Below are positions 17,427 to 57,281 of a stretch of 64,000 nt of DNA, in pieces. Numbering within the stretch: position 1 is the first letter of the stretch; each line of letters starts with the position of its first letter. The notes beneath the pieces are model-generated. The model made no database searches and had not been told where the DNA came from. It worked only from the letters and a program-made list of their open reading frames with translations. A program made the position numbers and the translations under genes. This stretch comes from a virus: the IMG/VR virus record IMGVR_UViG_3300027644_000004, positions 1 through 64,000 of that record, one strand, 5' to 3'.

Positions 17427-19453
17427 TGGCCGCCCTGCTGTCACCACTGCAACTTCAAGCTGCCGCTGGGTTGCTGCAAAACAAAGGCTATCAAGTTAAT
17501 CCTGCCTTAACAGCCGCAGTTAATGAGTACACATCAGTCCCTTTATTTGCTAATTTGATACTGGCAATGAATGCAAACACTTTGCCTGTGAATACACAAC
17601 TTTTGCTCCAATCTTTTGCAGGTAATGTCAGTAACAGTTGTCCGGCACTAGCAGATTCTTTTAACAGTGCATTGACATACCCAGTTACATCGACACAGGC
17701 CAACCCAGGGCTGTCCGGAATCATTACACTGACTGCCAATGCTTACATGGGCAACGGCGACCTCAGCAAGTTTGTGCAGACCTTTACACAAGCAAACAGT
17801 TATTGTTCAATTACAAATACTTTCATTAACAGCGCAGTTAATTCTAACAACTATCTAGGCCCTACATTTACTGGCATGGACAATCTTGTCACAGCCGGAC
17901 TTACCGAAATAAATCGTGCTACCCAGGCCATGGGCGACGACCTCAGCAATGCTGGCCAATACATTGATTTGGCCAATCTTGACAACTACGGCACGCCATT
18001 GGCATTGATACAACAAATATCTCGTCGAGCCGGCACAGTGAGTCCCTTGATTGTGGCACTGACCAATGTAGGCATAGACGAAAACATTGTACTGGGACTC
18101 AGCAATCCAACCGTGGTCGTGACCGACACAGTTCAAAAACTCATGTATCAGGCCTTGCAAAATATCACAGGCAGTGAACTTGCTGGCATTCTGCAAATAC
18201 TAGATGTATGGACCCCCAATATCAATACCCTGGCAGACTTGCTAAACCCTGCTGTGATGTATCCAAACAGTTATCCGTCGTTGACCACGCCCACCGCAGA
18301 TGGCCCACGTGCCATTTATATCACTCCTGAGGCCAATCCTCCTATTGATTACACTGACCTTTTGCCCGAAGACAATCAAAAGCTGTTGGAACAAGAAGCA
18401 GCCAACAGAACAGTAGAACGACCATTGGCCTGCGAAGTTCGACAAAGTGAAAATCCTGCAACTGTCGTTGCTACCAATACTGGTTCTGGCGCATCTTACA
18501 CACCAAACAGTAATCTAGAAGCAACTGTGATAGCTTGCCAAACCGGCACAAGTTACGAAAGAATGAGCATAATGACAGATCCAGGCTTGGCCTTGGTCAA
18601 CAAAGCACTGACCTGTTCGCTGAGTCAAGTTACAAATATTGGTAGAATGAATCTGCCGCAGTTGTCTGCTGCATTTCTTGTAGCCGAAACCAACAAAGAT
18701 TTACCTGCAATTGAAGCCCAAACAACTCCAGTACCGCAAGCAGACTTAGATTACTATGCTAATGATCTAGCCATTGGCACCGGAGAAGACGACACTATAT
18801 TGTTGATTGACATTCTTGGAACAGCCGCTGGAACAAATATCACAGAAAATCTCAGCAACTGTGTTGCCATCATTGACACCATGTATGCCGCCAGCCAGTT
18901 AGGCAACTTGATCACCATATACGATAACATCTATGCAAATACACTGGCATCAGATGTGGCCAATGTTACTACTCTGATTGGAGATGCTCAAGCAGAAATT
19001 GTCAATATCAAGGCCAATATCAATCCAGCTGCCTGCGCAGAACTCAACACATATTTCTCATCAATCAACACACAGTTGACTAGAGAAGCACAGTTACTGA
19101 CTCGAGCGGTAATAGATATTGGCAATGTGCAAGGCAATAATCAAATAGCAGTTATGAGTTTTGCAACCTCACTACCCGGCTATGGACTTGATACCAAGGT
19201 TGGCGGATCCGCACAGTATCTTGAAGAGGTTACTGAAAAAACCATGGTTGGCGATGTTCTTGTCAGAACATCAGCTGCTCAATCCACAGTGGCCACATTG
19301 CGTGAGGGCCGAACCACAACAGCACTCAATGCTGCCGGAGCAGGAACAGCAGCCAACGCTGTAGAATCTACACCAACAACACCACCACCTCAGGCCACTT
19401 TGATACCTTCAATCATAACCGAAGCTCAGGCCCGACAGCAGGTAATTTATTAA
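17426..19453 (+). CDS. large virion structural protein (baseplate/tail-associated, putative)
   Basis: TAATG-coupled to PAAR; Ala/Asn/Thr-rich. Confidence 0.55.
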   Translation: MAALLSPLQLQAAAGLLQNKGYQVNPALTAAVNEYTSVPLFANLILAMNANTLPVNTQLLLQSFAGNVSNSCPALADSFNSALTYPVTSTQANPGLSGIITLTANAYMGNGDLSKFVQTFTQANSYCSITNTFINSAVNSNNYLGPTFTGMDNLVTAGLTEINRATQAMGDDLSNAGQYIDLANLDNYGTPLALIQQISRRAGTVSPLIVALTNVGIDENIVLGLSNPTVVVTDTVQKLMYQALQNITGSELAGILQILDVWTPNINTLADLLNPAVMYPNSYPSLTTPTADGPRAIYITPEANPPIDYTDLLPEDNQKLLEQEAANRTVERPLACEVRQSENPATVVATNTGSGASYTPNSNLEATVIACQTGTSYERMSIMTDPGLALVNKALTCSLSQVTNIGRMNLPQLSAAFLVAETNKDLPAIEAQTTPVPQADLDYYANDLAIGTGEDDTILLIDILGTAAGTNITENLSNCVAIIDTMYAASQLGNLITIYDNIYANTLASDVANVTTLIGDAQAEIVNIKANINPAACAELNTYFSSINTQLTREAQLLTRAVIDIGNVQGNNQIAVMSFATSLPGYGLDTKVGGSAQYLEEVTEKTMVGDVLVRTSAAQSTVATLREGRTTTALNAAGAGTAANAVESTPTTPPPQATLIPSIITEAQARQQVIY

Positions 19454-19557
19454 TAATATCCCTTGAAGCCGTGTTTCTTGTAGTTGGCCTGTCTAGCTTC
19501 GCCAATTTCAATCAGCACTTCCCAGACATATTGTAACAGTTTTTTCATAGTACTCAT
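19450..19557 (-). CDS. 35-aa small protein MSTMKKLLQYVWEVLIEIGEARQANYKKHGFKGYY (not in ORF track)
   Basis: ATGA overlap with upstream small ORF; amphipathic helix; GGAG just upstream of second ATG. Confidence 0.6.
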   Translation of the reverse strand: MSTMKKLLQYVWEVLIEIGEARQANYKKHGFKGYY

Positions 19558-19718
19558 CTCCAATTTCCATTTCTCTCGTACTGGTGTGTCCAGTATTCAA
19601 CATCAGCAATATCTTTTACATTTTTTGAGCTCAAGTACTGATCCAGGCGACTTTGGTAATTTTGCCTAGGAAACATTTCAGCCAGTCTCTCCAATAATTG
19701 TGTCATTAGTTTTGACAT
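19554..19718 (-). CDS. 54-aa DUF3563-like small protein (not in ORF track)
   Basis: MSKLMTQLLERLAEMFPRQNYQSRLDQYLSSKNVKDIADVEYWTHQYERNGNWR; AAGGAG RBS and GGTAAATA late-type promoter on the - strand. Confidence 0.7.
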   Translation of the reverse strand: MSKLMTQLLERLAEMFPRQNYQSRLDQYLSSKNVKDIADVEYWTHQYERNGNWR

Positions 19719-19756: not shown

Positions 19757-19772
19757 ATGTTGCACTGCACAA
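19757..19772. promoter_or_regulatory. PhaR-like box 1 (TGC-N3-GCA)
   Basis: ATGTTGCACTGCACAA, framed by CCATGAG/CTCATGG inverted repeat (19747-19782). Confidence 0.5.
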
Positions 19773-19793: not shown

Positions 19794-19813
19794 ATTAGTA
19801 CTCAAGTACTAAT
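19794..19813. promoter_or_regulatory. palindromic operator-like site, family A copy 1
   Basis: ATTAGTACT-CA-AGTACTAAT. Confidence 0.6.
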
Positions 19814-31767: not shown

Positions 31768-31833
31768 TGTGTGGATGCCGATAGTCGGGTCTACATGGTA
31801 TAGTCAACTTGCTTAATAAGGAGAAAACAAATG
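31768..31833 (+). promoter_or_regulatory. ROSE-like two-hairpin RNA thermometer leader of hsp20
   Basis: Hairpin GGAT(G)CCGA-TAG-TCGGGTCT; SD hairpin CTT(G)CTT-AAT-AAGGAG with the UUGCU motif. Confidence 0.65.
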
Positions 31834-32298
31834 ACTAAAACTTTAACACTTCGCAGTTTCGATATTCCCACACTCAACAAATTTGGTATCGGTTTTGATA
31901 ACATGTTTGATGAACTCATGCGTGTGAGTGCCCAACAAGGCAGCACCAACTACCCACCTTACGATATTGTGCAAATCAACGATGATGAGTACATGATCAG
32001 CGTGGCTGTGGCTGGCTTTGGGCATGATAATCTTTCGGTTACCAAGGACAAAAAGTTCTTGATTATTGAAGGCAAACACAGCCGTGAAAATGTGGAAAAT
32101 GAAGATAGCAGTGCAAAGTACCTGCACAAAGGTATCAGTGAGCGTAGTTTCCGCAGAGAATTCCAATTGGCAGATCACGTGGAAATCAGCAACGCACACC
32201 TTGAACTTGGCATCTTGAGTATTCACTTAAAACGTGAAATACCCGAGGAAGCCAAGCCAAAGGCCATTGCTATCACTTACACATCGGACTTGAAATAA
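31831..32298 (+). CDS. ibpA: small heat-shock protein Hsp20 (IbpA-like)
   Basis: NYPPYDI, AVAGF, YLHKGIS.RSF.R.F.LA, GILSI.L. Confidence 0.95.
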   Translation: MTKTLTLRSFDIPTLNKFGIGFDNMFDELMRVSAQQGSTNYPPYDIVQINDDEYMISVAVAGFGHDNLSVTKDKKFLIIEGKHSRENVENEDSSAKYLHKGISERSFRREFQLADHVEISNAHLELGILSIHLKREIPEEAKPKAIAITYTSDLK

Positions 32299-39454: not shown

Positions 39455-39479
39455 CGATCGGTGTATTTTAGTGTATAAT
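39451..39479 (+). promoter_or_regulatory. sigma70-type promoter
   Basis: TTGACG-N17-TATAAT. Confidence 0.8.
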
Positions 39480-39485
39480 ATACAC

Positions 39486-40511
39486 ATGACTACACAAACA
39501 CGTATTGGCTTCTGTTGCAAATGGCTTAATGACCCGTCCGAATGCGGCGGCATGAAAGTCAATGCTGTGGACCGGGACCTTAACGGGCGTTCAACCACCA
39601 TGCGCTGGCTGCGTGAGCACCCAGCCGAGGCCGAACAACGGCAATGGGATATCATGAATCACAACACTGCGGCAGCGGTCAAAATGATCGAGCGTGTGGC
39701 CACTCTGCCTGCAGGCCGTAGAATGGTCCGACTAGGCAGTGAAATGCTACAGGGCTACACTGAGCCCAGTTGGATTGACTGGTGGCAACAGCCAGACGTA
39801 CAGAGTCATCTAGAACGTATTTTTGCACCCATTGGTGAAACTGCTCGTAGGCTGGACGTGAGATTGAGTTTTCATCCTGGGCAGTTTTGTGTGCTGGCCA
39901 GTGAGAACCCCGGCATCGTAAATAGAAGTATACAGGAGTTTGAATATCATGCAGATATGGTCAGGTGGATGGGATACGGCAAGACTTTTCAGGACTTTAA
40001 AATCAACGTACACATCTCGGGTAAACAAGGCCCCGCCGGCATTCGCTCTGCCCTCCAGCGACTCAGCCCCGAAGCAAGAAACTGCATCACCATCGAAAAT
40101 GACGAAAATGCCTGGGGAATCGACTCAAGCCTTGAACTTGCCCGAGACTGTGCCCTCGTGCTTGATCTACACCACCACTGGATCCGTACAGGAGAGTACA
40201 TTCAATCCTCCGACGATAGAGTTAAAGGCATAATTGATAGCTGGCGCGGAATGAGACCTGCCTTGCACTACAGTGTCAGCAGGGAAGACTATCTGGTAGA
40301 CCATGCCACAGATGTATTGCCAGACATGACTGCATTGTTGGCTCAAGGCTATAAAAAGCAAAAACTGCGAGCACACAGCGACTTCTATTGGAACTCGGCA
40401 GTGACTGACTGGGCACTGACCTTTGCTGAAGATTTCGACATACAGTGCGAGGCCAAAGGTAAAAACCTAGCCAGCCAGGCTGTGTACGAAAGAAAAACAA
40501 GTTATGAATGA
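39486..40511 (+). CDS. uvsE: UV damage endonuclease UvsE/UVDE
   Basis: RIGFCC, RLSFHPGQF..L.S, NVH, IENDE, LDLHHH, HYS, AHSD, EAK.K. Confidence 0.93.
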   Translation: MTTQTRIGFCCKWLNDPSECGGMKVNAVDRDLNGRSTTMRWLREHPAEAEQRQWDIMNHNTAAAVKMIERVATLPAGRRMVRLGSEMLQGYTEPSWIDWWQQPDVQSHLERIFAPIGETARRLDVRLSFHPGQFCVLASENPGIVNRSIQEFEYHADMVRWMGYGKTFQDFKINVHISGKQGPAGIRSALQRLSPEARNCITIENDENAWGIDSSLELARDCALVLDLHHHWIRTGEYIQSSDDRVKGIIDSWRGMRPALHYSVSREDYLVDHATDVLPDMTALLAQGYKKQKLRAHSDFYWNSAVTDWALTFAEDFDIQCEAKGKNLASQAVYERKTSYE

Positions 40512-40809: not shown

Positions 40810-41454
40810 ATGAAAACTATTGCACTGTTTGTGCATCAGCCCAAATGTTCTGTGCAAAGTGTCAACGGAATTATTCACGCACTGAGCCCACACTATCGTT
40901 TTAAAATCTTTACCCGCTATGAAGTTGAGCGGGATTTTTTTGACGATGTAGATTGTGTTGCAGTTCCGGGCGGCATAGGCGATGCCAGTAGTTTTGAATA
41001 CTTATTAAGAGATAATGGCACACGTATTCAGGATTTCGTAGCTCAAGGCGGTGCGTACCTGGGCATCTGTATGGGCGCATACTGGGCCGGCAGCAATTAT
41101 TTCGACCTACTAACGGATGTTGATGCAGAGCAGTATATAACAAGACCCGGAACAGACACTCGCAGACCACACGCAAAAAATATCAGTATAACCTGGAACA
41201 ATGAACCAATGAAGATGTTCTGGTACGATGGGTGTGCTTTTGTGGGCAACCAAACAAAGTTTAAAACTGTGGCTCGCTACGTGGGAAATAACGATCCAAT
41301 GGCCATTGTGCAACACCGCATAGGATTAATAGGATGCCACCCTGAAAGCACAGCAAATTGGTACGCACCTTACAGCTGGATGCGCGGGCATTACCATGGT
41401 GGCCAACATCACGCCTTGCTGTTGAATTTTGTTAACGAACTTTTAGCGTGTTGA
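40810..41454 (+). CDS. class I glutamine-amidotransferase-like (BPL_N type) protein
   Basis: VPGG, GGAYLGICMGAY, GCHPE triad. Confidence 0.8.
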   Translation: MKTIALFVHQPKCSVQSVNGIIHALSPHYRFKIFTRYEVERDFFDDVDCVAVPGGIGDASSFEYLLRDNGTRIQDFVAQGGAYLGICMGAYWAGSNYFDLLTDVDAEQYITRPGTDTRRPHAKNISITWNNEPMKMFWYDGCAFVGNQTKFKTVARYVGNNDPMAIVQHRIGLIGCHPESTANWYAPYSWMRGHYHGGQHHALLLNFVNELLAC

Positions 41455-41727
41455 TCTACCAGCAATGCGCTGACGTGCATAGCTTTCTAACTCTGAGTCA
41501 GACGGTGCAAGATTGTCGGCATTGTAAGGACCAAACTCTTTGGCATGTTCGGCACGCCAAAATTCGAGGTCAAGAGCGATTTCTTTAGAATCTGTGTCGC
41601 TGTGTTCTACAGGTGAATCTTTAACTGGTGGGCTATCAATGACCTTGCTTTTCTTTCGGTTCAGAGCAAAAAATGCGACAAGTCCGACTATTACCAGAAT
41701 GATTAAAATATTTTGCGAAAATTCCAT
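41443..41727 (-). CDS. small protein with N-terminal membrane anchor
   Basis: ILIILVIVGLVAFFAL then basic cluster; AGGGG RBS. Confidence 0.6.
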   Translation of the reverse strand: MEFSQNILIILVIVGLVAFFALNRKKSKVIDSPPVKDSPVEHSDTDSKEIALDLEFWRAEHAKEFGPYNADNLAPSDSELESYARQRIAGRSTR

Positions 41728-41759
41728 AGTTAAATCCCCTAATTTTTAACGTAACTTAT

Positions 41760-42077
41760 TTATTTGGTGTCTTTCTTGACACGTGGTTGAGCTGGCGTTT
41801 TCTTAGCAGCTGGCGTTTTTTTGGCCGGCGCTTTCTTAGCAGCTGGTGTTTTTTTGGCAGGAACTACAGACTCTGCTGGTACCAATGGGATTGGTGTAGC
41901 AGCCGCTGGCTCGGGCACTTTGTAGGTTGTGCTTTCTGCAACTGGCGCCAGAGGGGGGAATGGCCATATACCACCATCACTCTTGGAGTCCGGTGCCGGG
42001 GTCGGCGCTTCGACTTTGTACGGTGCTGGCTGCACTGTTGCTGGCTTATTAAAAAATCTTTTCAAAAATTGTAACAT
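41760..42077 (-). CDS. Pro/Ala/Lys-rich protein with PAKK repeats (histone-like tail)
   Basis: AGGAG RBS, TATAAATA promoter; PAKKTPAAKKAPAKKTPAAKKTPA. Confidence 0.7.
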   Translation of the reverse strand: MLQFLKRFFNKPATVQPAPYKVEAPTPAPDSKSDGGIWPFPPLAPVAESTTYKVPEPAAATPIPLVPAESVVPAKKTPAAKKAPAKKTPAAKKTPAQPRVKKDTK

Positions 42078-42098
42078 AAAGTTCTCCTGTGCTGTTAT

Positions 42099-43868
42099 TT
42101 ATATAACTTGTGCGGCTCGACGAGCTTGTGTGTTTGCCCGTGCCTGTTCAAGTGCAGTTAATATTTCTGGTGTGTCAACCCGGCGACTATTGTTGGCAGG
42201 CGTTGGCTTGCTGTTTTGTGCGGCTCGACGAGCTTGTGTGTTTGCCCGTGCCTGTTCAAGTGCATCTGCATCTGATATTTTTGGTATTTCTATTACATTG
42301 AGTAAACTATCACTGTTGTTCTGTATTGGGCTGCTGGGCAGATCAAGATGACGATCCTGTTCTATCTCTTGCATCATTCGATTGTAGCTTGGGCTGCCGG
42401 GCAGCTTTATAGTATGCGTGACTACAAAACTTTCCACAGCAAACTCTGGCAGATCAAGATGACGATCCTGTTCTATCTCTTGCATCATTCGATCGTAACC
42501 ATCACCGTGTGGCATGGGTTGCCATGTGGGATCTGGCTCAGCAGTACCATTTAAAAATGACTGTATAAAGTTGTTAATTGGGCCCAGCATGGCCTTGGGA
42601 TTAGCAATCCGATGATAGTTGTGCTCTAACACCGAGTGTGCTTGATCGTACAGATCTTGAGGGCTGAGATGATTTATCAGTTTAACCAACTGCTCAAACG
42701 CCTGTGTCCAGCGTTTTACGTTGTCGGGTTCTTCGTCGTAGCTTTCGTCTATCCACGGGGAAAATGTTTTGAACCCAATATTTCTAAGTTCCCGCAGACT
42801 GTGCTGTGGACCAAATGTAACAAAAATTCGTCGTCCAAACAGTACCTTGGCAGTTTTTTCTGTAAAAAAATTACACTTGGTAGAATTAGTTTCGGCTACA
42901 ACGCTGAACCAAGAATTTTGATATACACCGTGCGGTATAAAAAAACTTCCATACGGTGGCACGCCCAGCACAGTTTTTCCGTTGCCAACAGGAAAATGTT
43001 CAATTCCTAGGCTATGGGTGGAATGTGCAACCCAACCACCATGTCGGCTGTGTTCTCTTAGTACGACCATTTCTGGAGTGTCGTAACGATCCAATTCAGG
43101 AGTTCGATAATATACATTCTCGTATGATTCGGGCATGGCCGATGAAACATAAGTCTGAGCACTGATGCTGACTAATCCGTGTTCCAACAACTGATTTCGA
43201 CGCAGTAGGTCAAACAACAATTTTCTGTGTCCTTTGGCGCCACCTAACAGTGCTTCAAACTTGTATGGACGATCCTGACCGGGATCGTATTTTACAGGAG
43301 TATTGCTTGCTACAGTCCAGGCACCCCAGGAGTTTAGCGGAACACTCAATGCATTGTAAGGAAACAGGTTGCTGTCGATATCATCTCCGGTCCCGGCCAA
43401 AATAGATATTACTCGTCCTGGGCTAGTTTTAAAATACCCATCGGGATCGTTTAAAAAATCAATCCATTCTGATCCATACGCCATTTCTTCTTGTATGCAG
43501 ATTATTAGATCGGCCCAGCTGTAATCAATTCCTGGCCCTGGTCTAGGATAATACTGATCGGCCGGTAACTTGCAGACTTGCTGACCTGTGTGTTTTCTCA
43601 AGTGATAGTGCGGCTGAAATTGATCCAGTATGATTATTTTTTTCCGGTCGCTGTTTTTAAAAAACTCAACATGTTCCCATTTGGTAAATCTCATCACTGT
43701 ATTGGGATCTGCTGACGTCAGTGTCACGTGCATTGTATTCCATGGCCGATCACAGTGTGTGATATCTGGTAAGAATTTTAATCCTGCATTTTTTCCAATG
43801 GCACAGGTAACATCAAAAAATTTTGGATTCTGTAATCCAAATGCTCGTTGTGGGGTAAAGATAATCAT
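42099..43868 (-). CDS. glycosyltransferase-like protein (paralog 3) with duplicated C-terminal tail
   Basis: FTEKTAK..F..SLRELRNIGFKTF..IDESYD; start moved to ATG after TATAAATA (43873-43880, - strand). Confidence 0.6.
   Translation of the reverse strand: MIIFTPQRAFGLQNPKFFDVTCAIGKNAGLKFLPDITHCDRPWNTMHVTLTSADPNTVMRFTKWEHVEFFKNSDRKKIIILDQFQPHYHLRKHTGQQVCKLPADQYYPRPGPGIDYSWADLIICIQEEMAYGSEWIDFLNDPDGYFKTSPGRVISILAGTGDDIDSNLFPYNALSVPLNSWGAWTVASNTPVKYDPGQDRPYKFEALLGGAKGHRKLLFDLLRRNQLLEHGLVSISAQTYVSSAMPESYENVYYRTPELDRYDTPEMVVLREHSRHGGWVAHSTHSLGIEHFPVGNGKTVLGVPPYGSFFIPHGVYQNSWFSVVAETNSTKCNFFTEKTAKVLFGRRIFVTFGPQHSLRELRNIGFKTFSPWIDESYDEEPDNVKRWTQAFEQLVKLINHLSPQDLYDQAHSVLEHNYHRIANPKAMLGPINNFIQSFLNGTAEPDPTWQPMPHGDGYDRMMQEIEQDRHLDLPEFAVESFVVTHTIKLPGSPSYNRMMQEIEQDRHLDLPSSPIQNNSDSLLNVIEIPKISDADALEQARANTQARRAAQNSKPTPANNSRRVDTPEILTALEQARANTQARRAAQVI
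42108..42264. repeat. 49-bp exact direct repeat, period 108
   Basis: 42108-42156 = 42216-42264 (ALEQARANTQARRAAQ twice). Confidence 0.9.
42337..42493. repeat. 46-bp exact direct repeat, period 111
   Basis: 42337-42382 = 42448-42493 (RMMQEIEQDRHLDLP twice). Confidence 0.9.
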
Positions 43869-43910
43869 GGTATATTTATAGTGACAGCTCACTACAAATA
43901 ATATCAAACG

Positions 43911-43942
43911 ATGTTGCGCCGCAGCATAAATAATGTTACAAT
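43911..43942 (+). promoter_or_regulatory. PhaR-like box 2 overlapping a sigma70 -35 and a late promoter
   Basis: ATGTTGC-GCC-GCAGCAT (43911-43927); TTGCGC-N17-TACAAT; CATAAATA at 43925. Confidence 0.55.
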
Positions 43943-43947
43943 AAGAC

Positions 43948-44007
43948 ACTGGGTGCTGAATAGGTCGGGCCCAGTATCAGACTTGCTTAATTAAGGAGAA
44001 ACACATG
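43948..44007 (+). promoter_or_regulatory. ROSE-like two-hairpin leader of the phasin-like gene
   Basis: ACTGGGT(G)CTGA-ATAGG-TCGGGCCCAGT then CTT(G)CTT-AATT-AAGGAG. Confidence 0.6.
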
Positions 44008-44283
44008 TATACAGCAGACGCAATCATCGACACCGTTCAAACCGGTAAAAAAACTTTTGTCAACACTTTCGTTACTAACAAAACAGCCCGCGACGCCATG
44101 ATTGAATTCATTGACGCCCAAGCTGACTATACCAAAAAAGCTGCCAAAGTTGGTCAAGACACTGTCACTACATTGCTTAGTGAAGGTGTCAAGGCTTACC
44201 AAAATGCCACTAAATTTGACTACACCAAATTTGGCGAAGGCATCATGAAAGCCTACACAGCCCAAAACTTCACCAAAAAGTAA
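44005..44283 (+). CDS. phasin-like amphipathic helical protein
   Basis: 92 aa, all-helical amphipathic, no Cys/Pro/Trp; strong RBS, own terminator, PhaR-like box upstream. Confidence 0.5.
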   Translation: MYTADAIIDTVQTGKKTFVNTFVTNKTARDAMIEFIDAQADYTKKAAKVGQDTVTTLLSEGVKAYQNATKFDYTKFGEGIMKAYTAQNFTKK

Positions 44284-44296
44284 TACGCAAGTATTA
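44281..44296. promoter_or_regulatory. palindromic site, family A copy 2
   Basis: TAATAC-GCAA-GTATTA. Confidence 0.5.
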
Positions 44297-44302
44297 TCTT
44301 AC

Positions 44303-44329
44303 AAAAACCCTGCCCAGTGCAGGGTTTTT
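44303..44329 (+). terminator. rho-independent terminator
   Basis: AAAAACCCTGC-CCAGT-GCAGGGTTTTT. Confidence 0.85.
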
Positions 44330-44330
44330 C

Positions 44331-44359
44331 TTGACTAAATTTTCCCAAACTGCTACAAT
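44331..44359 (+). promoter_or_regulatory. early sigma70-type promoter
   Basis: TTGACT-N17-TACAAT; spacer nearly identical to that at 21060. Confidence 0.85.
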
Positions 44360-44385
44360 ACACACATAAACCGCAAGGAGTTAAA

Positions 44386-44883
44386 ATGTATTGTAATCCC
44401 ACACTGACCGCCGAAGAATTCAAGACCATTCACAACGGCCTCTGCGAACTTCGTAGTGTCTATGAATCCATTCACAGTGTTGTCCGAGAGCCTATTTCTG
44501 ACAAATTGGCCCGTGCAATTCGAGAAATTGAAAAAGGCTTGGCCAGTGCTTATGAAGAAGACAACAAGGATTTTACTCGTAAGAGCAATCACTTCGATGA
44601 TGTCAGTGCTCAACTAGGTATGGACCACAGCAATTGGAGTATTTACGAAGTAGACAATCTCACTGACCGCCATCCTTATGAGGGTGCGGAACGTGTGGTC
44701 TACAAAGATCATTGGGGCAAAAAGGCTTTGAGTTGTAGCATCAATGGCCTGACTTGGTCAGCTCTTTGGATTGCAGCCAATGCCTGTATTCGCGACAGCG
44801 GCGACGATCATCATATTTTTATCGAAAGTTTCCGGCCAGATGCTGAAGATCCCTGTACCCTGATTTTGAGCACTGGCAGCTGA
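44386..44883 (+). CDS. early hypothetical protein
   Basis: AAGGAG RBS; C-terminus SGD.HHIFIE.F...L.TGS. Confidence 0.75.
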   Translation: MYCNPTLTAEEFKTIHNGLCELRSVYESIHSVVREPISDKLARAIREIEKGLASAYEEDNKDFTRKSNHFDDVSAQLGMDHSNWSIYEVDNLTDRHPYEGAERVVYKDHWGKKALSCSINGLTWSALWIAANACIRDSGDDHHIFIESFRPDAEDPCTLILSTGS

Positions 44884-44894
44884 AAAACCATTGG

Positions 44895-44924
44895 TTGACC
44901 AATAATTCATATTTTTGCTACAAT
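44895..44924 (+). promoter_or_regulatory. early sigma70-type promoter
   Basis: TTGACC-N18-TACAAT. Confidence 0.75.
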
Positions 44925-44954
44925 ATACATATCACCATCAAGAAAGGTTTCACT

Positions 44955-45599
44955 ATGAAACAACGTATTTTATCTATTGCAGTTGCCGCCGCACTTGTGA
45001 CCTTGGCCGGTTGTTCAACCACAGCAGTGACCAACACTGACGAACAGATTCGCAATCAGCGACTGTCCACCAAGTTTGTGGGCGAAGGTATCAAGATTGA
45101 AACCAATTGTGCCTGGTACCGACCGTTCAAAAGCGACTGCGAGATTGTTTCTATCGAAGCAGTGGGCACCGCGCCAACCTTTGGCAACACCACCAGCAAT
45201 CGTAAAAACGCCTTGATCCGTGCAGAGATGCAGGCCGGTGCCAATGTTTCGCATTTTATCAAGCAGGACATCACCAGCAATCGGGTAACTACAACCATTG
45301 CCAAGAACGTGGAAAAGGCTCGCGACAAGCTGAACACCAATCATGGCGATCATGAAGTGGTCGAAATGAGTGACAACGAAGCCAAAGGCTCCAATGTAAG
45401 TGTGCGTGAAAACAGCAATGACACCGCAGTGAATCTAACCACCACCATCCGTGCCAACAGTGCGGCCGTACTCCGTGGCTTCAAAGTGACTCGCCAAGAA
45501 GTAACGGGCCCGCAAGAAGTTGCAGTGACCATTCGTTGGGATAAGGACAGTGAGCGTACCGCCCGAATGTTAGAAAGCAAGTTTGGCACCGCTCGCTGA
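44955..45599 (+). CDS. lipoprotein (LPP20-like)
   Basis: Lipobox LAGC; A..RAE..A...L.G pattern. Confidence 0.65.
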   Translation: MKQRILSIAVAAALVTLAGCSTTAVTNTDEQIRNQRLSTKFVGEGIKIETNCAWYRPFKSDCEIVSIEAVGTAPTFGNTTSNRKNALIRAEMQAGANVSHFIKQDITSNRVTTTIAKNVEKARDKLNTNHGDHEVVEMSDNEAKGSNVSVRENSNDTAVNLTTTIRANSAAVLRGFKVTRQEVTGPQEVAVTIRWDKDSERTARMLESKFGTAR

Positions 45600-45601
45600 A
45601 C

Positions 45602-46654
45602 ATGATGAAACGGCTGATTGTAACCGCAGTGGCAGTGATGTGCTTGGCCGCTCCTGCCACTGCCTCAACCCCAGAGCACCTTGGCCTGGCCATCACAATA
45701 GGACAGTGGATAATTAAAAATTCCAAGCGTGTGTACTATGTGCAGGTTGAGGCTAGAGGACGTACACAAGAAGAAGCACGCCGCAATGGATTTGCACTGG
45801 CAGTGGGACAGGCCATTGGCACACTGATACTAGTCGAACGAGAATCTGCCCATCAGGTGCTGACCAAGAATGAAATTGCCAGCTACAGCAGTGGCTACGT
45901 GGACAATTTTAAAATTGTTGACTCTCGAATTGATGCCGGCGACACTTTTGTGACCATGGATGTGTGGGTATCGCACAGTGCCATTGCCACCAGAGTCTTG
46001 GGCAAGTCCGAAACAGCAGGCCGAGTAGAAGGCGGCCGAATTGCCGCACAGTTGCAAACTCTCCAGCAGGAACGCTCTTCTGCAGACCAAGTACTACGCC
46101 TGGTGCTGGCAGATTTTCCACGCAAGGCCTTTGTGGTTGAAATGGACAAAACACGAGTTGTGTACGACCGTAATCGCACTGGACAGCTAGAAGTGGCATT
46201 TTATCTATCCTGGGACAAAAGATACATTGAAAGCATGGCCGAAGCTGTGACTGCCATAAACCAACGCTCAGATTGTGGTGGCCTATTTGGGTGCAGAGAT
46301 GTTGCATCTCGTGTGGATGTGGAACGTGCCGGATTTGGTACTACCACACAGGCCTGGTTCAATGACACAGTGGCCGAACAGATGATTCGTCGGGAAATGA
46401 TCCAGAGCAGACCGGCCATACGTGTGGCCATAGTAGACACCGCAGGAAATGAGCAGTTCAAGCAGTGTTTTTTTGCCAAAGAACTGGACCAACGCGACTA
46501 TTCTGCTTGGTACTATGTAAACGTTGGCCACAACACAACCGCCATCAACGGCAAAGCAGTGAAAAGATTCAATACATTTGTTGACCTTAGTCAGGTTCCG
46601 GTAGCCAATTTAGATCAGGTCACAGTGTCTGTAGTTCGCGCATCCGGTTGTTAA
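45602..46654 (+). CDS. exported protein with FlgT_N/LPP20-like N-domain
   Basis: Signal peptide; G.T.EEA...A..QA.G......YSSGYV. Confidence 0.55.
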   Translation: MMKRLIVTAVAVMCLAAPATASTPEHLGLAITIGQWIIKNSKRVYYVQVEARGRTQEEARRNGFALAVGQAIGTLILVERESAHQVLTKNEIASYSSGYVDNFKIVDSRIDAGDTFVTMDVWVSHSAIATRVLGKSETAGRVEGGRIAAQLQTLQQERSSADQVLRLVLADFPRKAFVVEMDKTRVVYDRNRTGQLEVAFYLSWDKRYIESMAEAVTAINQRSDCGGLFGCRDVASRVDVERAGFGTTTQAWFNDTVAEQMIRREMIQSRPAIRVAIVDTAGNEQFKQCFFAKELDQRDYSAWYYVNVGHNTTAINGKAVKRFNTFVDLSQVPVANLDQVTVSVVRASGC

Positions 46655-46740
46655 TTCATGGCAACACTGTTGCCATAAGTAGTTGCATCACTGGCATTTT
46701 AGCAGTATAATACTTAATAACACTTACATTGGATTAAATC

Positions 46741-47316
46741 ATGGCGGTACAGCAAGATTTTGACACGATAAAAGACCACACACAAGCCCTGGCCGATAAT
46801 GGCATGTATGTCTTTATGGGCGCAGTTGATCACGAAAGCATAAAGCCTGCAATCGAATGGATACTACACGAAAACTTTGTTGCAAAGAAAAAACGCAAAG
46901 AACTCTTGTTGATGATCTGTAGTGAAGGCGGGGACATGGGTGCTGCCTTTGCCTTGATTGACGTGATGCGCAGTTCCAATATCTTTATCAAAACAGTGGG
47001 CCTGGGGCAGATTGCAAGTGCAGGACTATTGATCTTTTTGGCCGGATCGCCAGGACGCAGAACCCTGACACCCAACACCAGTATCATGAGTCATCAGTAT
47101 GCCTGGGGCAATGATGGCAAACATCACGAATTAATGGCCACTCTCAAAGAGTTTGACCTCACGCAAAAACGCATGGTAGCGCATTATATACAGTGTACAG
47201 GATTGAGTGAAGAAGAAATCAAGCTGACTCTATTACCAGCACATGATGTATATCTCAGTGCAGAAGAAGCCCTGAAGCTGGGCATCTGCGACAACATCTC
47301 TGTGTTGAATCGTTAA
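46741..47316 (+). CDS. clpP: divergent ClpP-family protease
   Basis: ICSEGG, GQIASAG (Ser), MSHQ (His), HDVYLSAEEALKLG (Asp). Confidence 0.85.
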   Translation: MAVQQDFDTIKDHTQALADNGMYVFMGAVDHESIKPAIEWILHENFVAKKKRKELLLMICSEGGDMGAAFALIDVMRSSNIFIKTVGLGQIASAGLLIFLAGSPGRRTLTPNTSIMSHQYAWGNDGKHHELMATLKEFDLTQKRMVAHYIQCTGLSEEEIKLTLLPAHDVYLSAEEALKLGICDNISVLNR

Positions 47317-48059
47317 TTTTTCAATCCGGCATTTTTTAATATGCTAGACAATTCAACAGATTCATTAAACTCTTGCTCAATATTAATTGGTTTGCCGCCG
47401 ATTGTGACTTGTATTGTGAAACCTGGACGACTTCGATCAATAAACTTTTGCATATCAGCAACTTGTTTTGCAATTTCTAATTTTAATTTATCTGCTGAGT
47501 ATTTGCGTTTATCAAATGAAATATTTTGTTCTGGATAATCCGGATGCTTTGGATTGATCATTTTAATTGATACTTCGTTGGCATCTCTGTCAGTCTTGCC
47601 TTTTTCCCATTCGGCACTGTGTTGTGCTTGAGATTGGGCCGCAGCCTTGCCTTCTGGAGAATTATTCCAGCGTTCCATATCCTTTTTATATTCAGCATAG
47701 ATATCGTTGGCAACATTAAATCCTTGATCTTCAAGATATCCAGTTATGTTATCTTGAATAAAGTCATCAATGCTCATGTATGCTTCTCTACCAGCTTCCA
47801 TGCCTTTGTTCAAAAATGCTTTTGCTATTTGATCTATGTCAGCGGCGTCGCTGTCATTTTGTGATGTTAGATCTGATTTAACATCAACACCATCAGCACT
47901 AATGTCTGAATGGCCAGCGGCGTATAAATCTGCAAATTTTTGTATTGCTACACCGTAGGCGTATGGACCGTTGCCGTCATTGCCGCCCGGAGCAAATTCG
48001 TTTAACTCTCTTGCAAGATTTCTTTCTGTTTCGGTAACGTAGTCTCTGAAAGTTTTCAT
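47313..48059 (-). CDS. putative capsid-internal protein
   Basis: TATAAATA promoter; N-terminus MKTFRDYVTE resembles T4 IP capsid-targeting sequence MKTYQEFIAE. Confidence 0.55.
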   Translation of the reverse strand: MKTFRDYVTETERNLARELNEFAPGGNDGNGPYAYGVAIQKFADLYAAGHSDISADGVDVKSDLTSQNDSDAADIDQIAKAFLNKGMEAGREAYMSIDDFIQDNITGYLEDQGFNVANDIYAEYKKDMERWNNSPEGKAAAQSQAQHSAEWEKGKTDRDANEVSIKMINPKHPDYPEQNISFDKRKYSADKLKLEIAKQVADMQKFIDRSRPGFTIQVTIGGKPINIEQEFNESVELSSILKNAGLKN

Positions 48060-54701: not shown

Positions 54702-57281
54702 CTATTGTAATTTTATGGTAAAACCGGTTCCACTTATGGTTAGACCGGTTCCACTGATGGTAAATGATCCCAATGGCCCAGTGATGTTGTTATATATTAT
54801 TCTACGGGTGCCACCCATCAAGCTGTTTAGATCAGTCCAATCCGAACTTGTTGCAGTGGCAGGATCCGGTCCTTGGTAAAAAGTACTGTCCGATTGCACT
54901 GTTAAACTTTGCAGCCAGGTTCTTACATTTTGCCAAGTCCAAGATCTGTTGGTCTCTAACGCTGTGGCTATCAATCCTGTTGCAGTGGGACAAGCTGAAC
55001 TGGTCCCACCAAATCCAACGTCATAAAATGTTGTTGTGTTATCGCCTATATTGGCATTCACTCCAATCTGTATATCAATCTGATTGGCGGCATTTTCATA
55101 AAACGTAGCTTCCCACACCATGTTAGGATCGCCCAACGTTCCACTGGTACGGTTGGTGCCTTCCCATCGCACTCGATAAGTTCTGTTTGGGGCAGATCCT
55201 ACTACGCCGTAATAAATTCTCTGTGCTGAATTATCTCTGGCGCTGATCATTATTTTTGGCAGTGCAGGATTAGACGGATCCAAATCGCCATATGCCTCAG
55301 ATCCTCCGCCAAATGTTAAGTAACTGTTGGTTCCTACATAAACTGAGTTATAGCTAGTGCCATTATAGGTGACATTGAAAGGTAGAGACAAAGTCCAGTA
55401 ACCATCGTCGTTGTTTCCTTGAGTGGGACTAGTTGATGCTGTTAGTCCGGCTCCGCCAAACAACGAACTGGCAATGCTGATCACGGTTGCAGTTCCTGTA
55501 CTGGTAGTTATTCGATTTCCTGTGTCAGGCATCACACTAAATGTTCCAGTGGTTGACAATAACGCAGAAGCAGAACAAATTCCGCTGAATCCAATATCAA
55601 CTGGCCCATCGCTATACGTGTCATATCGAGGATATAGAGTCCCGTATACGGTACTTGTACCTAAATTCGGGCTTAACGTTTGATCACCCGGAGCATAGCA
55701 ATCAATTTGATCGCCCATGTCGCTATAATTGACTTTTTGTTCTAGGCCGCCATAGCCGCCTAGAAAACCGTCATCCAGTGCGCCAATGTTGATAGCAGGA
55801 TATACAATATTGCCACCGTCGGAGTATTTTCCTATCTGTTGAGGGAAACCTCTACGACTGGTGGTGTTGTAACAGGTTGATCCAAATTCATTGTGGCCTG
55901 TCTGAGACAATGGCACCGGCGGCTGGTCATAAAGAGAGCTGGACCAATAGTTGTTAAAATTGGGGTGAGAGGAACCTACCTGTTGCTGATTGCTGTTGCC
56001 TGCAGCCACAACAAAGATAACTCCACTGGCTATCAGTTCATCACCGGCCTCAGTTAAGGTGTTAGGAATCATTTCGCCTTTGAAGCGGCCGGCGTCGCCA
56101 GCACTGCCAAGACTTGCCATAAACGCAGGTTTGACGTCGTACGGCACTGCACCAGAGCCTGAAGTACCTTGCCTAAAATAATAATATCCGGAGTCACCTT
56201 GTGCAGCACGCCAGCCGAAACTGTTGCTGGAGATGGTGGGATCTCGTGTGCCATACAACGGATTGATAGGTTTGTTGAGATGAAATATTTTCATCACATC
56301 AAAATACAAGTCAACATTCAACCCAAATCCATTGTTTCCGTAAGCATCAATGAACCATTTATTAGCGTTGTAGGCCCAGCCAAGTGTTCTACCGTATGCT
56401 TGCCCACAGCAGGGTGTACCATGTTGGCCATCGACACTGACACTTACATCTGTTCCATTGCAGTTGCCTCTGTTGTAGCTGACCGGAACTGCTACTGTGC
56501 CTGCGGTACTAAACTGGCTGCTACGGGCAGAAGCATTTCCCCACCACTGTTTGGCCACGCTTTCTATCGGAACAGTGGTTCCATCCCAGCGTGTGGTTAA
56601 TCTAGCACCGGGATTGGCATTGAACCAGTCAGGGTCTATGTAATAGGGTCCTTCTAAAACCACATCCAGCAACATGCAAGTACCATTGCCAGGCAGTTTG
56701 TTACCACCTACAAAATCATTTGGCAGTGCTATAGCGCCTGAGGGATTGCTTTGGAATTCCACGTGGCCAAACCAACAACCGTCATCGCCAACAATGACAT
56801 CTATGTTTTTGCCTGTGTTGGTGTTGGGGATTGCACTGTTTAAAGGAGTATTAGCAAATTGGTCATCCCAAGGATCATCATACTGAGCGCATCGATATAA
56901 CTGGTAGCCAGCACGATTTATTTCAGCACTGGTTGGACTGGATGTAGGAACATCGCTGAGAGTTCTATAATTTTTTACTGTGGCGTTGTATCTATAAGGA
57001 TTGCAATGCAGTTCATCTGGCTGTGGAGGATACAAGTCTGGATATTGCGATTTATCTAAGTCTACAAATTTGACATCCGGATGCCCACTGATTTGTTTGG
57101 CTTCTTCGTCGGTCATTAGATACACAGCTCTAGTTGCACTGTGTTCTTTTAAATCTGTACACTCTATAGGTCTTGTGGGAATGTTGTCGTCAAGGCTGCC
57201 ATCTTGGGTCAGCACACTGTGTACATGGTCCCAGGCTGCTGGAGTGGCTACGCCAACTGTGTAATATTTTTGTTCACTCAT
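54702..57281 (-). CDS. subtilisin-like (S8) serine protease with inserted beta-domain
   Basis: VGDDG (Asp), HGTPC (His), AAGN (oxyanion Asn), GGTSSACP (Ser); N-terminal prodomain-like region. Confidence 0.85.
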   Translation of the reverse strand: MSEQKYYTVGVATPAAWDHVHSVLTQDGSLDDNIPTRPIECTDLKEHSATRAVYLMTDEEAKQISGHPDVKFVDLDKSQYPDLYPPQPDELHCNPYRYNATVKNYRTLSDVPTSSPTSAEINRAGYQLYRCAQYDDPWDDQFANTPLNSAIPNTNTGKNIDVIVGDDGCWFGHVEFQSNPSGAIALPNDFVGGNKLPGNGTCMLLDVVLEGPYYIDPDWFNANPGARLTTRWDGTTVPIESVAKQWWGNASARSSQFSTAGTVAVPVSYNRGNCNGTDVSVSVDGQHGTPCCGQAYGRTLGWAYNANKWFIDAYGNNGFGLNVDLYFDVMKIFHLNKPINPLYGTRDPTISSNSFGWRAAQGDSGYYYFRQGTSGSGAVPYDVKPAFMASLGSAGDAGRFKGEMIPNTLTEAGDELIASGVIFVVAAGNSNQQQVGSSHPNFNNYWSSSLYDQPPVPLSQTGHNEFGSTCYNTTSRRGFPQQIGKYSDGGNIVYPAINIGALDDGFLGGYGGLEQKVNYSDMGDQIDCYAPGDQTLSPNLGTSTVYGTLYPRYDTYSDGPVDIGFSGICSASALLSTTGTFSVMPDTGNRITTSTGTATVISIASSLFGGAGLTASTSPTQGNNDDGYWTLSLPFNVTYNGTSYNSVYVGTNSYLTFGGGSEAYGDLDPSNPALPKIMISARDNSAQRIYYGVVGSAPNRTYRVRWEGTNRTSGTLGDPNMVWEATFYENAANQIDIQIGVNANIGDNTTTFYDVGFGGTSSACPTATGLIATALETNRSWTWQNVRTWLQSLTVQSDSTFYQGPDPATATSSDWTDLNSLMGGTRRIIYNNITGPLGSFTISGTGLTISGTGFTIKLQ

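Follow-up and report, generated by a model that had tools for sequence, protein, structure and literature searches.

Can a bacteriophage read the carbon-storage state of its host through a regulator that the host itself supplies? This question is raised by a short locus at positions 43911-44329 of the IMG/VR virus record IMGVR_UViG_3300027644_000004, which lies in the window, as the whole stretch of DNA that was analysed is called here, namely the first 64 kb (64,000 nucleotides, nt) of this 92,255-bp record. The locus consists of a palindromic operator over a promoter, a structured leader, a gene for a protein of 92 amino acids (aa) and a terminator-like hairpin (Table 1). It is read here as a monocistronic phage accessory gene with a promoter that copies the host phaP promoter, which would be under the control of host PhaR, while its product would be an analogue of the phasins that coat granules of polyhydroxyalkanoate (PHA), such as polyhydroxybutyrate (PHB). 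A probability of roughly one half is assigned to this scheme as a whole. The sequence elements, their conservation among related phages and the identity with phaP and phaR operators of the host type can be read directly from the DNA.

The operator palindrome covers the -35 hexamer of a sigma70-type promoter and abuts the octamer CATAAATA, which matches at seven of eight positions the -10 element TATAAATA of T4-type late promoters (used with a gp55-type factor) and is considered late-promoter-like, with a putative function. A simple promoter pattern scan omits the sigma70-type promoter as the score of its TTGCGC hexamer is too low. The initial annotation of this DNA had described palindrome, sigma70 promoter, late-type motif, leader, open reading frame (ORF) and terminator as a self-contained unit, and all of these elements are present where it had placed them. 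Equally, its second copy of the ATGTTGC-N3-GCA core was borne out by a scan for such boxes, as the window contains precisely two occurrences of the motif (19757 and 43911). By themselves, two copies are marginal, with approximately 0.1 further copies expected by chance.

Is the palindrome under selection in other phages? Among 45 related loci retrieved, 35 distinct upstream regions of the 92-aa gene family were compared, with the unpublished genome G031 (locus L066) excluded from all alignments and motif counts and entering a single tally only (29 of 41). The box TGTTGC-N3-GCAACA is found with at least 10 of 12 positions in 22 of these 35 regions, and with at least 11 of 12 in 17, always 89-109 nt before the ATG and with TATAAT or TACAAT 10-11 nt downstream, versus 2.7% of 160-nt windows drawn at random from the related loci that reach the threshold of at least 10/12. 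As the arms are kept at this frequency above background while the 3-nt spacer is free to vary among the relatives, the palindrome is a conserved cis element. A box variant with a 4-nt spacer is present in four further upstream regions of the 35; this form, TGCTGC-GACC-GCACA, is seen in loci L002, L005/L006 and L036.

The class to which this element belongs is indicated by experimentally characterized sites of Betaproteobacteria. PhbF of Herbaspirillum seropedicae, which is 83% identical to PhaR of Ralstonia eutropha, binds to eleven pha promoters and acts as a repressor on fusions of phaP1 and phbF, and its DNase I footprint covers a site with TG[N]TGC[N]3GCAA (PMC3206438). A palindromic motif, YTKNTGCRNYGCANMAR, has been derived for PhaR of R. 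eutropha (PMC12849132). The phage box agrees with the former at 10 of 11 specified bases and departs from the latter only at the two outermost positions. Upstream of phasin genes the same box is common, as in about 20 of 31 Burkholderiales Phasin_2 loci it lies 50-160 nt before the phasin domain. Among 30 phaP loci of the genus Polynucleobacter, the genus being taken from a Polynucleobacter-labelled metagenome-assembled genome (MAG), 20 boxes with at least 10/12 positions occur in 6,150 upstream positions versus 2 in 90,300 positions elsewhere, which amounts to a 147-fold enrichment upstream of phaP, while the reverse pattern used as a control gives 0 boxes upstream and 2 elsewhere. The spacing is similar too, with the -10 hexamer usually 9-10 nt after the box in these phaP promoters and 10-11 nt after it in the phage relatives, and several sites of the genus display the complete 17-bp palindrome ATGTTGC-N3-GCAACAT with TATAAT or TACAAT behind it, as in the phage. 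Two complete genomes of the genus contain 18-19 sites with at most one mismatch, as compared with 4-6 matches to the control pattern. Of four perfect sites in G047 three lie upstream of phaP, as does the sole one in G050, to which one-mismatch sites add in both genomes, and a further site with one mismatch lies upstream of phaR. Host sites near gidB and parB are intragenic. Cumulatively, sequence comparison strongly supports that the palindrome belongs to the PhaR operator class of Betaproteobacteria, as had been proposed initially: it fits the sites of both publications, its motif marks phaP and phaR upstream regions, and it covers the -35 hexamer as in phaP promoters.

A PHB_acc_N domain, characteristic of PhaR, was found neither in the source record (G000) nor in three relatives that are 95-99% complete. 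Because the phage genomes encode no PhaR, the regulator must be supplied by the host; among 31 genomes of the candidate host genus, 28 encode PhaR, with the canonical N-terminus KKYPNRRLYDT. Binding of host PhaR to the phage box is considered probable. A scan for phaC, phaZ and phaP found none encoded by the phage genomes, with PhaC_N, PHB_depo_C and Phasin_2 domains all absent (the last in a six-frame search of G000 and G003-G005).

The second box lies in front of two small ORFs on the minus strand. Its 15-mer is identical upstream of phaP in two Polynucleobacter-genus genomes (L115, L121), and the box is kept in the relatives G004 and G005. The 54-aa ORF belongs to a family with 281 relatives in viral contigs, and among 58 distinct regions upstream of its homologues 27 possess the box with at least 10/12 positions; in most of these box-bearing regions the box is followed directly by CATAAATA and then by a conserved CAGTAGAAACC element. 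This conservation, which upholds the initial proposal of a small regulon with regard to the ORFs at 19450-19718, suggests that the box controls at least two units, each abutting a T4-type late-promoter-like motif. Neither the 54-aa nor the 37-aa ORF matches a Pfam family. At loci L150-L229, the element upstream of the 54-aa homologues reads CAGTAGAAACC(A/G)(T/C)GAG and follows a TAAATA motif, while in G004 (L085) the box is flanked by GGTTTCTAC repeats; CAGTAGAAACC-type element and GGTTTCTAC repeats may constitute a hairpin with which late transcripts begin. Other boxes with at most one mismatch in G003-G005 are mostly intragenic and look like chance occurrences.

A further proposed member of the regulon, a 104-aa protein with a PAKK tail encoded on the minus strand at 41766-42077, is not supported here, as no box was found at its gene in the window. 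The C-terminal AKKTPAAKKAPAKK-type tail of this protein resembles the tails of histone H1, PhaF or PhaM. In the relatives L024 and L009 the gene is directly divergent to the 92-aa gene; in the window the two are set apart by a gene for a 589-aa protein of unknown family (42102-43868).

What is the product that would be placed under this control? The 92-aa protein is rich in Thr, Ala and Lys, and AlphaFold predicts helices at residues 4-22, 26-70 and 73-90 with a mean pLDDT of 86, moderately amphipathic with hydrophobic moments of 0.35-0.41 over most 18-residue windows. The family is known only from metagenomes, where it is carried by T4-like jumbo phages, and comprises 1,414 clusters at 90% identity, of which the best 120 are 75-94% identical and about 91 aa long; at the 50% level 151 representatives match the 92-aa protein with E <= 0.001. 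With 70-83% identity among relatives, the gene is conserved on par with those for the ClpP-like protease and UvdE, and far above its other neighbours. Freshwater metatranscriptome contigs from four runs cover the ORF, one 321-nt contig corresponding to 43953-44273 with no differences, although such RNA-library contigs cannot prove transcription nor show transcript ends, strand or level. None of them extends over 43859-43932 or 44303-44413, and no inference was drawn from gaps or depth. Two variant architectures were encountered in the family: P0164 (143 aa), in which a LacI-type helix-turn-helix (HTH) domain (residues 7-51, E = 6e-14) is joined to helices 2-3 of the 92-aa family, and P0138 (161 aa), in which the family domain is duplicated in tandem. 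Both are single representatives for which fusion and assembly artefact are indistinguishable.

Between promoter and gene, the 5' untranslated region at 43947-44010 aligns over the whole of the Rfam model ROSE_3 with 27.7 bits (E = 2.8e-4), and the leader of the phage hsp20 gene reaches 31.9 bits (E = 2.5e-5). Hairpin 1 is backed by covariation in 35 sequences, with 86% of cells paired and changes to both partners in 9 of 11 pairs; none of 500 shuffles scored as high, and slid controls were far lower. In place of the motif facing the Shine-Dalgarno (SD) sequence, relatives possess either CUUGCU or CUCGCU, which correspond to the ROSE motif U(U/C)GCU, and those with CUCGCU are predicted to have the SD better masked. 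Nearest-neighbour folding predicts an SD unpaired probability of 0.1-0.3, rising with temperature, for L004, L013 and hsp20. The leader thus shares with ROSE_3 thermometers (RF02523) a hairpin at the 5' side and, after it, a U(U/C)GCU motif that lies opposite the SD and leaves a G bulged, and a ROSE-like architecture is supported at the sequence level. It differs from the ROSE_3 elements on small heat-shock genes in that the downstream gene is not a heat-shock gene and in its weak predicted SD masking. A similar ROSE-like leader, behind a sigma32-like promoter, precedes ibpA in two Polynucleobacter-genus genomes; the phage hsp20 leader sits behind a TAAATA motif. With respect to the end of the unit, a pattern scan missed the terminator hairpin because its U-run pairs into the stem.

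The surroundings of the operators contain a second type of symmetric element. The 92-kb record contains just three palindromes of the form TAGTNN-N4-NNACTA, two of them (43879-43894 and 19796-19811) at a distance of 17-24 nt from the PhaR boxes, and the inner bases of these two differ, GA/TC versus AC/GT, yet stay complementary. The palindrome at 43879 is kept in relatives, including those without a PhaR box. Directly after the terminator, a strong sigma70-like promoter (44331-44359; TTGACT, 17-nt spacer and TACAAT, the -10 being preceded by TG) serves the following gene (44386-44883), which encodes a 165-aa protein of no known family.

Table 1. Features of the operator units and of genes referred to in the text (window coordinates)
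Feature	Position	Strand	Details and basis
Second PhaR-type box	19758-19772	-	Minus-strand reading TTGTGC-AGT-GCAACA; sequence read
Two small ORFs downstream of second box	19450-19718	-	54 aa (19554-19718) and 37 aa (19450-19563); ORF list
hsp20 gene with ROSE_3-like leader	31769-32298	+	Gene 31831-32298, leader 31769-31836; HSP20 Pfam E = 7e-16
UvdE UV endonuclease	39471-40511		Conservation comparable to 92-aa gene
Palindrome TAGTGA-CAGC-TCACTA	43879-43894	.	17 nt upstream of box; overlaps TATAAATA of divergent gene starting at 43868; sequence
PhaR/PhbF-type operator palindrome	43911-43927	.	ATGTTGC-GCC-GCAGCAT, core TGC-N3-GCA, over -35; 17 bp, one arm mismatch; sequence read
Sigma70-type promoter	43914-43942	+	-35 TTGCGC (43914-43919), 17-nt spacer, -10 TACAAT (43937-43942); sequence read
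T4-type late-promoter-like motif	43925-43932	+	CATAAATA, abutting box; sequence read, putative function
Leader hairpin 1	43948-43975	+	Bulged G, starts ~6 nt after -10; folding, covariation, ROSE_3 model positions 1-27
Leader hairpin 2	43982-43999	+	ROSE-type, bulged G, anti-SD CUUGCUU facing SD AAGGAGA (43993-43999); ROSE_3 alignment
92-aa ORF	44005-44283	+	Amphipathic three-helix protein, pI 9.1; ORF list
Intrinsic-terminator-like hairpin	44303-44329	+	11-bp stem; folding -15.2 kcal/mol, z = -3.64
ClpP-family protease	46741-47316		Conservation comparable to 92-aa gene

How might these elements work together? In the proposed mechanism, host PhaR would bind the box and block the sigma70 promoter together with the adjoining late motif, keeping the gene off, until forming PHB granules titrate PhaR to the granule surface and repression would be lifted. 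The ROSE-like leader may add control by the temperature or the protein-folding state of the cell. The product, a non-homologous phasin analogue, would then coat PHB granules or further hydrophobic surfaces inside infected cells. Like PhaP, a granule-coating product would drive PhaR back to the DNA and so curb its own production; what a very large phage may gain is a carbon store that is stabilised or made accessible. The unit at 19450-19718 would be subject to the same operator. For the step in which the 92-aa product acts as a granule coat, the odds are estimated to fall slightly short of even. Held more tentatively, with doubt prevailing, is the extended form of the scheme, a PhaR-controlled regulon of at least two units with late-type promoters, a new non-homologous class of phasins which remodels or exploits the granules, and a ROSE-type leader shared with hsp20.

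The model for this circuit is the PhaR/PhbF-phaP system as represented by phaP1 of Cupriavidus necator H16 and PhbF of H. seropedicae. In common are the operator class TG-N-TGC-N3-GCAA as a 17-bp palindrome, its overlap with the -35/-10 region of a sigma70 promoter, a small amphipathic helical protein encoded downstream and a second operator-bearing unit. On the other hand, the phage product is without detectable Phasin_2 homology, the phage operator is in addition contiguous with a late motif of the T4 type, the unit includes a ROSE-like leader, and the phage version is carried by a lytic-type T4-like jumbo phage devoid of phaR, phaC and phaZ.

A number of observations weigh against the scheme, many of which concern the product. 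The initial annotation had called the 92-aa protein phasin-like, and homology with phasins did not materialize: no usable match was obtained in Pfam, NCBIfam or PHROGs, Phasin_2 (PF09361) not being matched even at E <= 1, and profile-profile alignment by HHalign of 50 family members with 31 Burkholderiales Phasin_2 domains gave a probability of 0.7%, that of the family with Polynucleobacter PhaR 0.6%, while cross-searches with hidden Markov models of the 92-aa family and Phasin_2 stayed at or below 16 bits. Foldseek against the Protein Data Bank (PDB) retrieved nothing at E <= 0.001, and a sequence-profile search of the PDB only designed helical bundles. What is left are leads. Phasin_2 is the Pfam family with the largest number of weakly matching members (12 of 50; the best match has E = 8e-4), in inconsistent registers and with 20 bits at best, all below the gathering cut-off of 24.9 bits. 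In a language-model atlas, where scores below 0.9 count as leads only, the nearest Pfam-bearing clusters are Phasin_2 (0.87, 13% of members), PHB_acc (0.85) and PHA_synth_III_E (0.82), the nearest clusters overall being viral. The only solved phasin, PhaP of Aeromonas hydrophila (5IP0), superimposes with Z 7.2 and 2.1 A root mean square deviation over 70 residues, at rank 16 and tied with many unrelated helical hairpins; both proteins contain a long amphipathic helical hairpin, which at 9% identity is a common arrangement that does not demonstrate kinship. Weak as they are, the family, atlas and structure leads suggest a phasin-like character, and the 92-aa product is possibly a phasin analogue.

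Similarly, of the ROSE-like leader claimed at the outset, the architecture stands through the full-length ROSE_3 alignment and the covariation of hairpin 1, while the score of the family does not, as both leaders are under the gathering score of 43. The relatives score lower still, none at the gathering score and 0 of 5 loci at E <= 1, and folding predicts that in this very copy the hairpin which masks the SD is weak, with an SD unpaired probability of 0.70 across 5-45 C. To these points it has to be added that a general role in stress or as a chaperone accounts for the ROSE link to hsp20 as well as a PHB role does, that the phage carries no PHA enzyme, that approximately nine of the 35 upstream regions, about a quarter of the family, possess an ordinary -35 hexamer TTGAYT and no box, and that the scheme is derived from sequence.

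Some of these points would be accommodated if the PhaR site is real but serves as a nutritional sensor only, with the 92-aa protein as a stress, proteostasis or host-takeover factor without action on PHB. It might then be a chaperone-like protein, or else an oligomerising regulatory module that is produced alongside the phage Hsp20. The product without phasin homology, the leader common to its gene and hsp20, the ClpP-like and Hsp20 genes in the region and the phage without PHA enzymes all agree with such a role, and the fusion of helices 2-3 to a LacI-type HTH in P0164 would indicate a modular function apart from granules. However, the weak family and feature leads all head toward PHA-granule proteins, and in the hosts the genes that bear the operator are phaP and phaR. 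Moreover, phasins have been reported to have chaperone-like activity, so that stress and granule roles may coexist. A pure sensor function is rated as rather unlikely, though it is the main rival.

Could the palindrome then be bound by something else than PhaR? Another dimeric regulator, encoded by the phage or a different host factor, might recognize it, the likeness to PhaR sites being due to convergence or mimicry. PhaR binding is after all deduced from sequence, the TAGTNN-N4-NNACTA palindrome beside both boxes could belong to a phage regulator, and some relatives show the 4-nt spacer variants. This explanation has nevertheless to cope with a match that spans 15-17 bp, one 15-mer being identical to host-type phaP operators, with a placement relative to the -10 hexamer as in phaP promoters, with a motif that marks the PHA regulon in hosts, and with near-complete phage genomes that lack any PhaR-like domain; it is regarded as improbable. 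That the palindrome is an extended -35 region, symmetric by chance and without regulatory role, could draw on the two copies of the 10-base core in the window, which are only weakly significant, but is already contradicted by the conservation data, that is by conserved arms with a variable spacer well above background, by the conserved second unit, and also by the enrichment of the box upstream of phaP; its probability is minute. Control by host PhaR, with a phasin analogue as the product, is retained as the preferred reading.

Which phage is concerned, and in which host would it multiply? The CheckV completeness of the record, 27%, implies a genome size of approximately 340 kb, and relatives with the 92-aa gene include records of 342-349 kb with a completeness of 95-99%. 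The window encodes ribonucleotide reductase, DNA ligase, tail-fibre proteins, HSP20, a ClpP-like protease and UvdE, and the best isolate matches of an 859-aa protein (54702-57281) are T4-like cyanomyoviruses such as S-SSM7. The source is read as a T4-like jumbo phage of freshwater, as yet uncultured, with a genome of about 340 kb. Among GenBank phages there is no DNA match to 41000-48000 and no protein match to the 92-aa protein, and the lineage is described neither in the moraphage paper nor in the metaHi-C preprint. Two MAG contigs binned as Haliscomenobacter and Polynucleobacter that carry the locus were taken as mis-binned phage DNA and not as host copies. The GC content is 45.5% for the phage and 45.1% for the loci of the candidate host genus Polynucleobacter. 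Operator class, GC content and the ROSE-like ibpA leader are compatible with Polynucleobacter or another PhaR-bearing Betaproteobacterium as host, and none of them proves it; the phage Hsp20 shares no more than 35-37% identity with IbpA from two Polynucleobacter-genus genomes, which gives no sign of recent transfer and no proof of the host.

Phage accessory genes tied to regulators of the host are known for phosphate, nitrogen and SOS regulation; cyanophages carry pstS and phoA with pho boxes for PhoB, and T4-like cyanophages possess NtcA sites. The common denominator of these cases and the phage described here is a T4-like phage with the site of a host transcription factor on an accessory gene that would track the nutritional state of the cell. 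Unlike them, the present phage would read carbon storage, by way of PhaR titrated by PHB granules, and not phosphate or nitrogen, and the control would be by repression and not by activation. In the literature, no report was found on phage phasins, on phage use of PhaR or on phages that read the carbon-storage state via PhaR.

With respect to applicability, the betaproteobacterial PhaR operator is a possible host-range marker for uncultured jumbo phages, and the system is cheap and testable: it comprises a single operator and a single small protein, and assays for PhaR and PHB are established. The 92-aa family is very common in lake metagenomes, with more than 1,400 clusters at 90% identity, and is present in freshwater RNA libraries. 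If the extended form of the scheme is true, a phage senses carbon storage together with proteostasis in abundant lake Betaproteobacteria; a PHB-dependent switch could affect the release, by viral lysis, of the carbon stored in these bacteria.

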